Of a stretch of 33,350 bases of DNA, positions 1,651 to 16,088 are shown one piece after another (position 1 is the first letter of the stretch; each line of letters starts with the position of its first letter). The stretch is from the NCBI GenBank assembly GCA_036477175.1, contig JAZGCX010000044.1, forward strand, positions 1-33,350. The letters are read 5' to 3'. The stretch comes from Phycisphaeraceae bacterium (lineage in GTDB: Bacteria > Planctomycetota > Phycisphaerae > Phycisphaerales > Phycisphaeraceae). Below the pieces are notes generated by a model, which ran no database searches, was not told where the DNA came from, and was given only the letters and a program-made list of their open reading frames with translations. The position numbers were made by a program, and so were the translations under genes.

Positions 1651-3295
1651 CGCCTCTTGCCACCTCAATCAGGTGGTAGGCGAAGGCGTCGGTGATGGCC
1701 TGCCAGGAGGCGTCCACGATGTTCTCGTTGACCCCGACGGTGCTGAAATACGAGGCGGCCCTGGCGTTTTCATTGTCGGGCCTGACGGCGAATTCGGCGA
1801 TGACGCGGACTTTGGCGGCCGACTCGGCGGTCGGGTTGACCACGCGGACCTTGTAATCGGTCAGGTGCACCTCGGTGATCTGCGGGTAATGGTCTTTGAG
1901 GCACTTGCGCAGTGCGGCGTCCAGCGCGTTGACCGGACCGTCGCCCTCGGCCACACGGTGTTCGACCGCCCCATTGACCGCAAGTTTAACGATCGCCTCG
2001 GTCGAGGCCGGCTCGTCGTCGCGCTTCAGGATCACGCAGCGGTAGTGGTCCAGTTCCCAGAACCGGGGCCGCGTGCCTAACACGTCGTGCAACAGCAGTT
2101 CGAAGCTGGCGGTGGCGGTTTCGAACTGGTAGCCCTGATGCTCCAGCTCCTGCACACGCTCCAGTAGCTGGCGCTGAACCTGCTTGTTGTCGGCGATATT
2201 AAACTTCCTGCCAAGCGTGGCCGAGATGTTGCTCGCCCCCGACAGCTCGCTGACGAGCACGCGGCGGACGTTGCCGACCTTTTCCGGCTCGACGTGCTCG
2301 TAACTGTGCGCCACGCGCTGCACCGCGTGCACGTGCATGCCGCCCTTGTGGGCAAAGGCGGCGCTGCCGACAAACGGCTGGTTAGGGATCAGGTTCATGT
2401 TGGCCGCCTCGTACACGAACCGGCTGGTCTCGGTCAGCTTCGACAGGCTGGCGTCGGACAGGCACTGGTAGCCCATCTTCAGGCACAGGGTCGCCGCGAC
2501 GGTGGTCAGGTCCACGTTGCCGCACCGCTCGCCGATGCCGTTGATCGTGCCCTGGACCTGCACGGCGCCGGCCTCGACGGCGGCGAGGGAGTTGGCCACC
2601 GCCAGTCCCGAGTCGTTGTGGCAGTGGATGCCCAGGAGGCTTGAGGCCTGGGGCTTGGGGCTTGAGGCAAGCGAGCCGAGGTATTGCTGCACCTGCTGCA
2701 CCACCTGACTGATCCAGCCCGGTAGCGACCCGCCGTTGGTGTCGCAGAGAATCAAGCGGCCGGCGCCGCCTTCCAGCGCTGCGGTTAGCGTCGCCAGCGC
2801 ATATTCACAGTTGGCCCGGTAGCCGTCGAAAAAATGCTCGGCATCGTAGAACACCTCGGTGCTGTCGGCCTGGCAACAAAACGCGACCGATTCACGGATC
2901 ATCGCCAGGTTCTCCTCGCGGCTGACACGCAGCACCTCGTCCACGTGCAGGCCCCACGTCTTGCCCACGATGGTGATCACAGGCGTGGCGGCGGCGACCA
3001 GCGCTTTCATGCCCGGGTCGGCGGCGGCGGACATGCCCTTTCGGCGGGTCATGCCGAACGCGCAGACCCTGGCGTGCTTGAGCTGGAGCTTGGCCACCTC
3101 GGCGAAATAGGCTGCGTCCTTGGGGTTGGACAGCGGATAGCCGCCCTCGATGTAGTCCACGCCCAGGGCGTCCAGGTGCTGGGTGATCTTGATCTTCTCC
3201 ACGAGGCTGAAGGCCACCCCAGCGCCTTGGGCGCCGTCGCGGAGCGTGGTGTCGTAGAGCTCGATCCGTCGCCCGTGTGGTTGTGACGTTTGCAT
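1640..3295 (-). CDS. cimA: (R)-citramalate synthase (LeuA-related 2-isopropylmalate synthase family, long form with C-terminal LeuA-dimer-type regulatory domain)
   Basis: [64 protein letters not shown].. matches the LeuA_rel/CimA N-terminal pattern (GG.P.SNPKD). 551 aa from ATG 3295-3293, with GGAGA 13 nt upstream. The 598-aa track ORF extension reads through the upstream terminator and leader, so I rejected it. Confidence 0.8.
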
Positions 3296-3372
3296 GGCCG
3301 ATTGGTCTCCGCCGCTGGTCCGGCCCGGCCGACCCGGCCGGGATACCGGTTGCCATTGAGGCCCTGTCCAAT

Positions 3373-3400
3373 AAAAAACCCTGCCGATCGGCAGGGTCTG
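3373..3400 (-). terminator. intrinsic terminator between the leader mini-ORF and cimA: CCCUGCC-GAUC-GGCAGGG followed by UUUUUU
   Basis: Minus strand reads ccagaCCCTGCCgatcGGCAGGGttttttattgg. The stem is 3396-3390 / 3385-3379 and the U-tract is 3378-3373. On the plus strand no T-run follows the hairpin, so the orientation is minus. Confidence 0.8.
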
Positions 3401-3429
3401 GATTCGCGAAGGCACGCTGATCGCAGGCC

Positions 3430-3495
3430 CTACCACAGGTAGCGGCTGTTAATGATAATGCGGGCGATCGCCGTGATGGGGCCGGTGCTCATCAT
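3430..3495 (-). promoter_or_regulatory. 21-codon Ile-rich leader peptide ORF (MMSTGPITAIARIIINSRYLW) upstream of cimA
   Basis: Minus strand: aatAGGGGGt ATG ATG AGC ACC GGC CCC ATC ACG GCG ATC GCC CGC ATT ATC ATT AAC AGC CGC TAC CTG TGG TAG. It has 5 Ile in 21 residues, three of them consecutive. The stop codon lies inside the antiterminator strand GGUAGGGCCUG (3434-3424). Confidence 0.65.
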
Positions 3496-3502
3496 ACCCC
3501 CT

Positions 3503-3530
3503 ATTGTATCGGCTAATCAGACCGCGGCAA
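3503..3530 (-). promoter_or_regulatory. candidate promoter for the cimA leader transcript: TTGCCG-16 nt-TACAAT
   Basis: Minus strand reads gcTTGCCGcggtctgattagccgaTACAATagggggtATG. The -10 ends only 7 nt before the leader ATG. The transcript would therefore be nearly leaderless, or else the real promoter lies further upstream. Confidence 0.3.
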
Positions 3531-3831
3531 GCCACAACAGCCGGCGGGCTTGGCCAAAGTTGCCCCAATCGGGCGAGGGCGTTGCACGTTCGGTCCCGAC
3601 CAATTACAACCTTGACCCAACCGGGCCCCCGAGGTCGGCCGAAACGTCCCCACCGCCCCAGTCCCAGAACCAGGGATGGCAGACAGAATCAGTTTACCGT
3701 GCAACTCCCACCGCTGGTGTCAGCTGGCACATATTGCGCTGCACGTCGAGCCGAGCCACCGTTCGGGCACGCCACCCGGCCCTACTACAATATTGCCCTC
3801 ACTTGGGGGATTTACCTAGGGTATAGGCCCC

Positions 3832-6800
3832 ATGCCGGTACCGACGACGACATTCCGCAACATGAAAGTGTTGAACGCGATCTTCGCGGTCACCGCCGTG
3901 GTGCTGCTGCTGTCGACCTTCTGGCTGGTCGTCGCCGACCACTTCAAGAGCACCTGGCGGCGGTACCACCGGGCGGCGCGGGTGTGGGACGAAGCGATCC
4001 TCGTCGATGCTCATCGCGCCGCGCTATCCGATGAGTACATCCGCCAGATCAAACAACTGAACGCGGAGATAGGGGAACTGAAAGCGTCGATGAACGCCGA
4101 TGAAATCCGACGGCTCGAACAGCAGCTCACGGATACCAAGGAGAACAAGGAAAAGACGGCGTTGAAGCTGTCGGTCGAAAGAGGCAAGGTTGGCCCGAAA
4201 CGACAGCAGATCGAACGCGCCCGGCTCGAGTACGACGACGACTCCGACCAGGTCATCGCATTGCGGGGCGAACTTTGGCGCATCAATGAGGTCGTCGACA
4301 AGATGTCGGCAGACATGGCCGGCTTCGACCGCGAGATCGACGAGACGACCGCCAGACTCCACCAGGCGAAACAGAAGCTCAACCAGAAGCAAAAGAAGCT
4401 GGGCGACCTTGAACGCGACGACAAGACCATCAAGGAGACACTCGCCGCCGTTGCGCCCAAAGGCGCCGCCAAGGTCAGCGAACGGATTCGCAACGCCCCC
4501 CTGCTCGACTGGTTCAATGCCAGCGAAAGAATCGAACAGGTCGTCGTCCCCGACGTCCTGACCGACTACAACTTCGTCCAGGTCGAGACGATCGACCGGT
4601 GCACGACCTGTCACGTCAACATCGACGACCCGGTCTTCGAACAGAACACCCTGACCGCATTTACCGAACGCCAGGTTGCCCGGGCCCAGGGGCAGGCCGT
4701 CGCGGTGCTCGATCGCCCGGTCGTGATGCTCGGTTTCTGGGTCGAGGCGGCTCGATTAGCCGGCCTGAGCGACGAGCTGGACCGGCTCAACCAGCAGGCG
4801 CTGCAACAGATCAACGCCGTGCGTCAAGAGGCCGGCCTGGAACCGGTCAAAGCGACGAATCAATCGCAACTGTTGGCGACGTTTGACCGCATTGCCCAAT
4901 CGCCGGCCCCGGCCCCGGTGGCTACAGCCCGGTGGTACACCCCGCTGGTTAATTACCGGGACGACCTGATCTCACTGCTGGCAGAGCGCCTGGGCCAACA
5001 GCAGTTCAACCTGTTGAGCGACACCTACTGGTACGCGCTGATCGAAAAGTACAACGCGCAGCGGAAGGAGCAGAACCTACCCGCGGTATCGGCCAGCCCG
5101 GTGCTGCTGGGCCACCCGCAGATCGATTTATATGCCGGGCCTGATTCCAGCCACCCGGTCAAGACGATGGGCTGCACCGTCTGTCATGAAGGGTCGGGCC
5201 AGGAGACGCAGTTCGAGCACACCGCCCACTCGCCGCGGCCGATCTGGGTCGATGCCCAAACCGGCTCGCCCGTCGCCGACTTCATGATCGAGCAGCCCAG
5301 CGACGGCGACACCATCGAATCGTACATCCACTCAGCCCAGCTCGCCGCGAGCCGATCGGCCCACGAGACCGCCTCGGCCGACCAGGTCCCCGGCGGCGCC
5401 GCGGTCATTGCGGCATCGATGACAACCGCCACGGGTGACACAGGCCACGAGGAGACTGACAACGGTGGCCCCACCTACGTCCATGACGACTTAAATCTGG
5501 CCGACCCGGACAACCCGCACCACGCCCTTAGCCCTGAGCACGACCACGCCACCACCGCCGCCTACCGCAACCCGGCCGACCCGGCCAAGCCCCGACTGGC
5601 CATCCGTCAGGAACAGCATTGGCGTGAGCAATTCGGCTGGCACCACATCCATTACATGCACTGGGAAAAACCGATGCACGCGCTCGAATTTGTCGAGTCG
5701 AGCTGCAACAAATGTCACACCGAGGTCTACGGCATCCGAGACGCTGCACCGGTGCTCTTTCATGGCCGAAAGCTCTTCGCCCAGCTCGGCTGCGTCAACT
5801 GCCACGCGGTCACGTCGCTCGAAGACGATCTGGATATCAAGAAGGTCGGCCCGTCGCTGGTGAATGTGCGCTCCAAGCTGTCGCCTCAGATGACGGCCTC
5901 GTGGATCTGGGCGCCCAAGGCCTTTCGTCCCACCACGCGGATGCCGCACTACTTCATGCTCGAAAACAACTCGTCGCCCGTGGACATCCTGCGCACCCGC
6001 ACCGAAGTGACGGCAATCACCTACTACCTGCAAACCACGCCGCCACCCGAAGGCACACGGCCCTATGAGGTCGAGGCGGTGCCGGAGTTGGTTGGTACGA
6101 TCGACGAGAGCCGGCAGCGCGGCCGGACCCTGTTTCACCAATTGGGCTGTCTCGCCTGCCACAGCAACCTGGACGAGACCGGCGAGGCCTGGATCACCGC
6201 CGACCTGATGCAACGCAAGGGTTTGAGCGCCCCCGAGGCCAAAGCCCGGTACGTCTCGATGGCCGATGACACGCCCGACAACGGTTACAACGCCCGGCAC
6301 TGGTACGTGCAGCAACACCTGCAGGACCGCATGACACTGTTGGGCCCGGAGTTATCCGGCGTCGGCACCAAACTCAAGACCAGCCGCACCGAACAGCAGG
6401 CCCGCACCTGGCTATACGACTGGCTACGCAACCCCAGGCATTACTCGGGCTACACCATCATGCCGAGATTCCGGCTCACCGAGCAGGACACCAACGACCT
6501 GGCCACCTATCTGCTGTCGCTACAGCGGCCGGGCTATGAAGCTGACCGCTTCGGCTTCGCCGATGACGGCAGCGTCGCGCTCGACGACGACACCGAGCGC
6601 ATGCTCGCCGCATTAGTCGCCAACCTCCTGGCCGGCCAGAGCACCCCTGAGCTGGCGCGACAGGAGGTCACCAGTGCCACGGACCCAAACGACAGCTCCA
6701 AGAAGAAGTGGACACGCCACAAACAGTTGATGTTCCTCGGCCAGAAGACGATCAACCACTATGGCTGTAGCGGCTGTCACCAGATCAACGGGTTCGAGGA

Positions 6801-15793: not shown

Positions 15794-15952
15794 TGTTGTG
15801 GCAGTTGTTCCGCGCGCTTCGCCTACGGGGCGCTGTTCGGTGCAGATCGACCGACGAGAACGCAGCTCAATCCTCTTCGATGTGTTCGACGAACTCGACG
15901 CAAATGCCGATGACTTGGCGGATTGTGGTCTAAATCCTTGCCAGAGCAACAA

Positions 15953-16026
15953 TACGCCCGGGAGGATTCGAACCCCCAACCCTCGGATCCGAAGTCCGAT
16001 GCTCTGTCCAGTTGAGCTACGGGCGC
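15953..16026 (-). tRNA. tRNA-Arg (anticodon TCG)
   Basis: Manual cloverleaf: GCGCCCG TA GCTC AACTGGACA GAGC A TCGGA CTTCGGA TCCGA GGGTT GGGGG TTCGAAT CCTCC CGGGCGT A. It is 74 nt and CCA is not encoded. Confidence 0.9.
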
Positions 16027-16088
16027 AGCGGGTAACGCTACACGTTACGGGTGGTGGACGCGGTCGTCAACGCTAAGCCGCAAGCGGC

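Follow-up and report, generated by a model that had tools for sequence, protein, structure and literature searches.

A candidate leader-peptide attenuator with isoleucine codons upstream of the citramalate synthase gene cimA in Planctomycetota

Could a planctomycete gauge its supply of isoleucine (Ile) by the progress of a ribosome along a short leader peptide? The question is raised by an element of about 125 nucleotides (nt) that precedes cimA, the gene for (R)-citramalate synthase, on the minus strand of contig JAZGCX010000044.1 from a Phycisphaeraceae bacterium. The whole stretch of 33,350 nt that was analysed is called the window here, and the features of the locus are collected in Table 1. 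A sequence-only reading had proposed that an Ile-rich mini-open reading frame (mini-ORF), a terminator and an antiterminator together form an isoleucine attenuator in this place. Having followed up this proposal, we consider it very probable that the element is a ribosome-mediated, that is leader-peptide, transcription attenuator, which would sense charged tRNA-Ile and control cimA. Since CimA supplies the precursor of 2-oxobutyrate on the way to isoleucine, such a loop would be homeostatic.

Is the downstream gene indeed cimA? Its product passes the cut-off of the TIGR00977 equivalog model, as the earlier assignment had implied, and in profile searches the LeuA models stay far under their own cut-offs. 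The closest relatives found by protein search are CimA proteins of other Phycisphaerae (Planctomycetota), with identities that reach 75%. The gene is probably monocistronic, since a tRNA-Arg gene starts 120 nt past its stop.

The building blocks of the proposed attenuator are all present on the minus strand, at the positions that the sequence-only reading had given. The mini-ORF has five Ile among its 21 residues, three of them consecutive; the other two Ile codons lie at 3477-3475 and 3468-3466, and a second in-frame ATG is found at 3492. From the leader stop a spacer of 33 nt leads to an intrinsic terminator with an energy of −13.4 kcal/mol, which can extend to 10 pairs from 3399, 6 of them G-C. 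It is the single terminator site in a scan of 3000-4200 and ends 77 nt before the cimA ATG. The upstream neighbour, a gene for a multihaem cytochrome c, is divergent from the leader promoter region, with a common intergenic region of about 300 nt; because of this orientation the hairpin on the cimA side is not the end of another gene.

What could compete with this terminator? The sequence-only reading had pointed to GGUAGGGCCUG (3434-3424), which contains the leader stop codon, as a partner of CAGACCCUGCC (3400-3390), which includes the 5' arm of the terminator. The pairing is real, with a duplex energy of −15.5 kcal/mol (.(((((((.(((.&))).)))))))), but it is not just a duplex of 11 nt: it forms the base of a longer hairpin of 45 nt, without a T-box bulge. 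Antiterminator duplex energies range from −15.5 to −19.3 kcal/mol. When the nascent RNA is cut at 3390 or 3386, so that the 3' arm of the terminator is absent, the antiterminator is the minimum-energy structure; once this arm is added, the terminator takes over. The minimum-energy fold of 3530-3290 and that of a transcript ending at 3400 also contain a possible transient helix of the 1:2 or pause type. A shorter, offset duplex between segments 1 and 2 of the window has an energy of −12.6 kcal/mol.

A ribosome on the leader would be expected to shift this choice. In folds of the window masked with a generic ribosome footprint (−15 to +12 nt from the A-site), the antiterminator is the minimum-energy nascent structure for A-site codons 1-17, including Ile13-15, and is lost from codon 18 to the stop. 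The pattern is much the same across 35 cimA loci that have this layout and are introduced below: a ribosome placed over the Ile codons leaves the antiterminator intact in about 33 of them, whereas one at the stop reduces this number to 0-1 and lets the terminator form in all 35. In these model folds, the opposed effects of a ribosome at the stop codon and a ribosome stalled at Ile, as originally proposed, are reproduced in the window and in nearly all relatives.

How might such a switch work? RNA polymerase would begin its transcript at the leader AUG or slightly ahead of it (7 nt separate the AUG from the end of the −10 box), and a ribosome would translate the 21-codon leader as the polymerase proceeds. 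With ample Ile-tRNA, this ribosome would reach the UAG at 3432-3430 and cover the 5' strand of the antiterminator, leaving 3400-3390 free to pair with 3385-3379; the terminator would form and transcription would stop in the U-tract at 3378-3373. With scarce Ile-tRNA, the ribosome would stall at AUU-AUC-AUU (3459-3451), 18-27 nt before the stop, and leave 3434-3424 free to pair with 3400-3390 once these have been made. The antiterminator at 3434-3390 would then take the terminator 5' arm, and the polymerase would read into cimA. This would be a compact, two-helix form of classical attenuation.

Does the arrangement recur in related genomes? We gathered 80 cimA loci, one per species and all from Planctomycetota, whose CimA is 53-76% identical to that of the window, and searched the 350 nt upstream of cimA for mini-ORFs. 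At least three Ile in seven residues occur in 45/80 loci, as opposed to 16 on the reverse complement and 6.75 in mononucleotide shuffles; at least four occur in 23 loci (reverse complement 3, shuffles 0.66) and at least five in 10 (reverse complement 1). The enrichment over shuffles amounts to about 7-fold at the threshold of three and about 35-fold at that of four, to be read with the kinship of the sequences in mind, by which shuffle-based significance overstates independence. An Ile ORF together with a hairpin and a T-run (4-9 T), the hairpin starting 22-42 nt past the stop, is found in 35 loci including the window, and about ten further loci have mixed Ile/Val leaders in the same layout. 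Leader peptides such as MTTANASIIAIAIIITYPM (locus L003), MLNSTPIIIESIIITSPPTR (L010), MFFATSIIAISIIIGTGKA (L080) and MSVSYTDYVSSIIIICKITGSS (L033, Gimesia) are conserved at the Ile positions and at the 3' end that encodes the structure, and not beyond. The composite signature of Ile ORF and terminator has 50 matches in 1.17 Mb of related loci, both strands included, and 37 of these fall within 250 nt upstream of cimA, a zone that makes up about 1.7% of the sequence. Two other matches (L053, L069) also lie upstream of cimA, just beyond the 250-nt zone.

If both helices matter, they should have changed together in evolution. When the loci are lined up on the leader stop, the stop is seen to lie within the partner strand of the terminator 5' arm, and the two change in concert. 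GG-UAG-GG stands opposite CCCUGCC or CCCUACC in the window and in L001-L007, L010, L020 and L076, CC-UGA-GG opposite CCUCAGG in L015, L018, L022 and L032, and CUUGAGG, right after a UGA stop, opposite CCUCAGG in the Gimesia loci. Further solutions are CCUCCGGGG with CCCCGGAGG (L064), GGCCUAGGG with CCCAAGGCC (L080) and CGCCUUAGGGC with GCCCUGAGGCG (L009). Throughout, the embedded stop varies between UAG, UGA and UAA and stays a stop.

An alignment made with MAFFT from the leader stop to the U-tract of all 35 loci was set aside for measuring covariation, because its columns are unreliable, given how variable the spacers are; duplex energies and a plain MAFFT alignment of 23 truncated sequences were used instead. 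The duplex between stop region and terminator arm has a mean of −15.1 kcal/mol within a locus and of −11.4 kcal/mol between loci (Mann-Whitney P=2.9e-6); shuffling of the stop region brings the mean to −9.5 kcal/mol (P=2e-10 against the within-locus value). From the 23 sequences, RNAalifold predicts exactly the antiterminator helix of 7 base pairs, with 4/7 pairs changed on both sides. In this helix 87.6% of cells are paired (shuffled 71.3 ± 2.6%), 26 cells are changed on both sides (shuffled 13.1) and the covariation score is 0.39 (shuffled 0.155); for none of the three did any of 500 shuffles reach as high a value. Sliding the 3' partners by 1-3 columns lowers the score to 0.21 or less. With related sequences these covariation figures overstate independence, yet several distinct solutions each keep the pairing. 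The comparison of orthologues that the sequence-only reading had suggested, looking for an Ile-codon ORF and two covarying helices, has in this way turned out in its favour, down to compensatory changes that include the stop codon.

A further view comes from metagenome contigs, which were scanned with a pattern of the RNA platform only (GGTAGGG, 20-45 nt, CCCTRCY, 3-8 nt, RGYAGGGTTTT) that holds neither Ile codons nor gene information. Of its 68 matches, 53 have an ORF with at least three Ile in seven residues that ends at the embedded TAG. The gene downstream of these 53 is cimA in 34 cases and ileS in 12 (one of these ileS ORFs scores 776 bits with TIGR00392), another gene in 1, and too short to tell in 6. 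Fifteen matches lack an Ile ORF; ten of them stand next to unrelated genes and seem to be fortuitous. The ileS copies of the module stand on Phycisphaerae contigs (L083, L086, L088, L091, L099, L101, L102, L109, L111, L129, L134, L137); the window itself contains no ileS. Because two different isoleucine-specific genes sit behind the same module, Ile as the signal is strongly supported, and since this module precedes ileS as well as cimA, the two genes would form a small Ile regulon in related Phycisphaerae.

The sampled genomes and the named metagenome groups all belong to Planctomycetota. The largest metagenome group, with leaders of the type …RIIITPRQxG, has a CimA that is at most 65% identical to that of any of the 80 genome loci; it was considered as a lineage beyond the phylum, an idea that was rejected when a protein search placed it with Tepidisphaeraceae of the Phycisphaerae.

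Where the Ile codons stand relative to the stop is also fixed. Among the 52 metagenome leaders long enough to be aligned on their stops, Ile occupies codons −9, −8 and −7 in 30, 46 and 48, respectively, and codon −12 in 35; in 47/52 the run of Ile ends 6-7 codons ahead of the stop. The window leader matches this consensus exactly, with I10 at −12 and I13-15 at −9 to −7. The codon at −8 and −7 is nearly always ATT. In the 35 genome leaders Ile is written as 105 ATT, 72 ATC and 4 ATA, and in the adjacent cimA genes as 206, 603 and 41, which gives an odds ratio of 4.3 for ATT in leaders versus cimA coding sequence (Fisher P=2.6e-17). The cimA of the window has ATT once and ATC 18 times, and its leader run is nonetheless ATT-ATC-ATT. 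Classical attenuators use rare codons, with which the non-preferred ATT of the present leaders may be compared.

Could these observations be explained in another way? The least credible account is that of a chance ORF next to an ordinary terminator or insulator between divergent genes, with no regulation by Ile at all. Short ORFs are abundant in any sequence and the z-score of the whole-region fold is only −2.0; set against this are the positional and compositional enrichment, the covariation, the recovery of Ile ORFs with a pattern free of Ile and the fixed Ile positions, found in loci that are no near-identical copies of each other given the divergence of their CimA. We hold this account to be untenable. 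It is also very unlikely that the same RNA elements work without translation, through a protein or other factor that binds the AUU/AUC triplets in the manner of TRAP in Bacillus, a riboswitch or a T-box. Such a factor would fit the conservation of the AUU-rich stretch at the nucleotide level, with its strong preference for ATT at −8 and −7, as well as an antiterminator that forms by default without a ribosome. It would leave unexplained why the Ile triplets are always bracketed by an in-frame ATG and an in-frame stop, vary among the synonymous ATT, ATC and ATA and have other codons in between, and why the antiterminator holds a stop specifically, whose swaps between UAG, UGA and UAA remain stops. 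T-box and riboswitch models, moreover, give no match at E values up to 10, and the element is short for them.

That the leader is translated and acts by means other than intrinsic termination, be it Rho-dependent polarity, messenger RNA (mRNA) stability or the initiation of cimA translation, with the hairpin as a structural or stabilising element, we regard as very unlikely too. The G+C-rich hairpin runs directly into 4-9 T in the window and the 35 loci, and its distance from the cimA start varies from 4 to 171 nt, so that the ribosome-binding site of cimA is not systematically covered; on the other side, U-tracts are interrupted or short in some lineages, for example in L073 and L075. Might the terminated short transcript, or the hydrophobic Ile-rich peptide, have a function of its own as a small RNA (sRNA) or micropeptide, besides or in place of attenuation? 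Attenuated leader transcripts that act in trans are known in other bacteria, and the weak, sub-threshold Rfam similarities of the region are all to sRNAs with terminators. These similarities, however, score far under the gathering thresholds (20.6 versus 37 and 17.7 versus 49.5), and the peptide is unconserved outside the Ile positions and its structure-encoding end, which leaves this idea highly improbable.

Several points, besides the kinship of the sequences, weigh against an attenuator that senses charged tRNA-Ile. About 35-45% of the sampled cimA loci have no recognisable leader and terminator under the criteria used. Among the 35 loci there is no conserved anti-antiterminator (1:2 helix), and the untranslated default would be read-through, a difference from classical trp-type attenuators. 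The footprint size in the masked folds is a generic assumption. A start of transcription upstream of the predicted promoter would void the leaderless reading of the leader discussed below, and a start at the AUG means that there is no Shine-Dalgarno sequence, so that leaderless initiation becomes an assumption for this phylum. As to the 1:2 helix, the truncated folds without a ribosome form the antiterminator in 28/35 loci; because of this a conserved anti-antiterminator is not part of the design proposed here, and the classical four-segment model was dropped as a requirement. Not every accepted attenuator has a 1:2 anti-antiterminator or pause helix. In ORF, terminator, antiterminator and ribosome geometry, as far as sequence and model folds can tell, the element has the structure of the leader-peptide attenuator class.

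Where does translation of the leader begin? A sigma-70-like promoter site, the only promoter-like match within 3000-4200, precedes the mini-ORF so closely that the sequence AGGGGGT (AGGGGG at 3502-3497) is all that fits between its −10 box and the first ATG. The sequence-only reading had taken AGGGGG as similar to a Shine-Dalgarno sequence. The letters are there, but this role is unlikely, given their place downstream of the −10 box and ahead of the ATG, where the sequences of relatives are unrelated; AGGGGG is probably promoter spacer and may be outside the transcript. A TAnnnT hexamer ends 6-10 nt before the leader ATG in 11/35 loci (including the window, L001, L002, L003, L006, L007 and L010), and in 10/35 it is preceded at 16-18 nt by TTGnnn (including L002, L003, L006, L007, L010, L015, L018, L022 and L038); L001 has the TAnnnT box without TTGnnn. 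In the window and these 10 loci the geometry of the promoter is compatible with a start of transcription, as predicted, at the leader AUG. Because of this spacing, the leader mRNA is probably leaderless or nearly so. The closeness of a −10-like hexamer to the leader ATG suggests leaderless translation of leader peptides in Planctomycetota.

How does the element relate to known systems? Scanned with Rfam at E values up to 10, the region 3000-4000 gives only sub-threshold sRNA-like or terminator-driven matches, and neither a leader family nor a T-box, the Ile T-box (RF00230) included. The best of these matches, isrJ, anti-hemB and the rnk leader, are driven by the terminator, lie far under their gathering scores and were rejected; at the gathering score, the whole window yields two tRNAs only. 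The element thus has no similarity in sequence or covariance model to the Rfam leader families. It is closest in layout to the enterobacterial class of ilvGMEDA (ilvL), ilvBN (ivbL) and the trp, his, leu, thr and pheA leaders, which likewise combine a short ORF, rich in codons of the amino acid that the pathway makes, with antiterminator and terminator helices that exclude each other and with a rho-independent terminator before the first structural gene; there too a ribosome at the stop masks the antiterminator strand and a stall at the regulatory codons frees it. The present element differs in its genes, cimA and ileS, and its phylum, in having no conserved 1:2 anti-antiterminator or pause helix, in a stop embedded in the middle of the antiterminator strand and in an mRNA that is probably leaderless. 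Whereas the ilv leaders mix Ile, Val and Leu, the leaders in the clade of the window have only Ile codons.

For ileS, the E. coli pheST attenuator with its pheM leader offers a parallel, as an aminoacyl-tRNA synthetase gene controlled through a leader peptide with many residues of the cognate amino acid; it senses Phe, belongs to another lineage and has no sequence in common with the present element. In Firmicutes, Actinobacteria and Deltaproteobacteria, Ile T-box leaders precede ileS and also leuA-like or cimA genes, as reportedly described by Vitreschak et al. (2008). They follow the same logic, in that ileS and the citramalate route are switched on when charged tRNA-Ile is low, again by way of alternative terminator and antiterminator structures, but a T-box binds uncharged tRNA directly, works without translation and measures at least about 200 nt, in contrast to an element of about 125 nt with an ORF. 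A further comparison is with the Corynebacterium ilvB-II motif and the C. glutamicum ilvBNC leader, again from high-G+C hosts, with an upstream ORF of branched-chain codons and comparatively found terminator and antiterminator stems (PMC10272879). Synthesis of the C. glutamicum leader peptide reportedly proceeds in the absence of a ribosome-binding site (Morbach et al. 2000, as cited in PMC10272879), which, as far as that citation goes, parallels the promoter geometry described here. Differences lie in gene (ilvB versus cimA and ileS), phylum and sequence; Ile, Leu and Val codons occur together in the Corynebacterium leaders, and the Corynebacterium system has reporter-gene support, whereas the present element is known from sequence comparison and model folds.

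The sequence-only reading had also suggested that the element is novel. No description of a leader-peptide attenuator for cimA or in planctomycetes was found in full-text literature searches aimed at one, in which the survey of Lopatovskaya et al. 2010, where a prior mention is possible, was outside coverage; leader-gene distances in Planctomycetes are merely counted in PMC4833913. This part of the claim stands, with two qualifications: the element is not peculiar to cimA, as it also precedes ileS, and its mechanism is textbook. New are the genes and the phylum.

What follows if the reading is correct? Both cimA, whose product opens the citramalate route to isoleucine, and ileS would join the genes known or predicted to be under leader-peptide attenuation, and Planctomycetota, in which gene regulation is barely charted and many members are uncultured, would be a new phylum for attenuators. 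The antiterminator-embedded stop, changing between UAG, UGA and UAA together with the terminator arm, presents a clear case of co-evolution of RNA structure and codons. The signature can be used to annotate such elements and to seek attenuators for other amino acids, and citramalate-type 'LeuA-like' genes behind Ile leaders could be assigned to isoleucine synthesis with more confidence. Because attenuation requires transcription and translation to be coupled, the element also offers a testable handle on this coupling in Planctomycetota.

Attenuators work only with a ribosome within a few tens of nt behind RNA polymerase. Their conservation, if the attenuator reading is true, would be genomic evidence for tight transcription-translation coupling, with bearing on Gemmata, in which the two processes have been claimed to be spatially separated, a claim under dispute (PMC6212462, PMC6554331, PMC5394234); attenuators would then serve as a simple genetic reporter for testing the claim. 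Genomes labelled as Gemmataceae carry a variant form of the candidate attenuator. Tentatively, we extend the proposal to the phylum: from Phycisphaerae to Gimesia, Pirellulales, Isosphaerales and Gemmataceae-labelled genomes, Planctomycetota might have a phylum-wide Ile regulon (cimA, ileS and perhaps more) run by leaderless leader-peptide attenuators, whose conservation would be direct genomic evidence of coupling. This broad version may well be right, but we would not yet count on it.

Table 1 Features of the cimA locus and its surroundings, in window coordinates
Feature	Position	Strand	Details
Promoter-like site, sigma-70-like	3530-3503	minus	TTGCCG −35 (3530-3525), 16-nt spacer, TACAAT −10 (3508-3503)
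Leader mini-ORF	3495-3430	minus	MMSTGPITAIARIIINSRYLW, 21 codons and UAG stop (3432-3430); ATG ATG AGC ACC GGC CCC ATC ACG GCG ATC GCC CGC ATT ATC ATT AAC AGC CGC TAC CTG TGG TAG
Possible transient 1:2 or pause-type helix	about 3482-3427	minus	GGCCCCAUCACGG (~3482-3470) with CUGUGGUAGGGCC (~3439-3427)
Candidate regulatory Ile codons	3459-3451	minus	ATT-ATC-ATT, codons 13-15, positions −9, −8, −7 from stop
Antiterminator hairpin, 45 nt	3434-3390	minus	5' strand GGUAGGG.CUG (3434-3424), 3' strand CAG.CCCUGCC (3400-3390)
Intrinsic terminator	3396-3373	minus	CCCUGCC (3396-3390), loop GAUC, GGCAGGG (3385-3379), U6 (3378-3373)
cimA, (R)-citramalate synthase, 551 amino acids	3295-1640	minus	TIGR00977 equivalog 633.7 bits, cut-off 450
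Multihaem cytochrome c gene, 1672 amino acids	3832-8850	plus	cytochrome c, FixO-like and MtrC-like multihaem domains
tRNA-Arg gene	1520-1447	minus	
tRNA-Arg gene	15952-16027	minus	
mcsA-like gene	1383-754	minus	UVR motif
mcsB-like protein arginine kinase gene	757 to window edge	minus	PF00217, 212 bits

Some cimA loci depart from the pattern of the window. About one quarter to one third have neither an Ile leader nor a terminator under the criteria used (L005, L008, L014, L025, L031, L041, L044, L050, L051, L056, L059-L063, L070, L072, L077-L079), and some of their start sites are possibly mis-estimated; 18 leader-less loci scanned with Rfam gave no known cis-regulatory family. In some Pirellulales and other lineages the cimA leaders contain Val as well as Ile, as in VIGVVVVITTG and AVVICVVIR (loci L040, L046, L068, L023, L034, L019 and L011), and because of these leaders the signal that is sensed may differ between lineages.

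A variant leader of the form ...I(I/T)xAQGVR... occurs in L038, L053, L067, L073 and L075, from genomes labelled as Isosphaerales and Gemmataceae. It has an invariant GCGCAGGGAGUGCGC hairpin within the ORF, directly after the Ile codons, and the U-tract of the terminator is interrupted in some cases. In L067 the terminator 5' arm begins 1 nt past the stop codon, an arrangement at odds with the simple logic.

Two further observations concern the surroundings of cimA. The two tRNA-Arg genes of the window have the anticodons ACG and TCG. Beyond the one that follows cimA, the mcsA-like gene overlaps the mcsB-like gene by 4 nt, and positions 1-1383 hold in this way a McsAB pair of Gram-positive style in a planctomycete.

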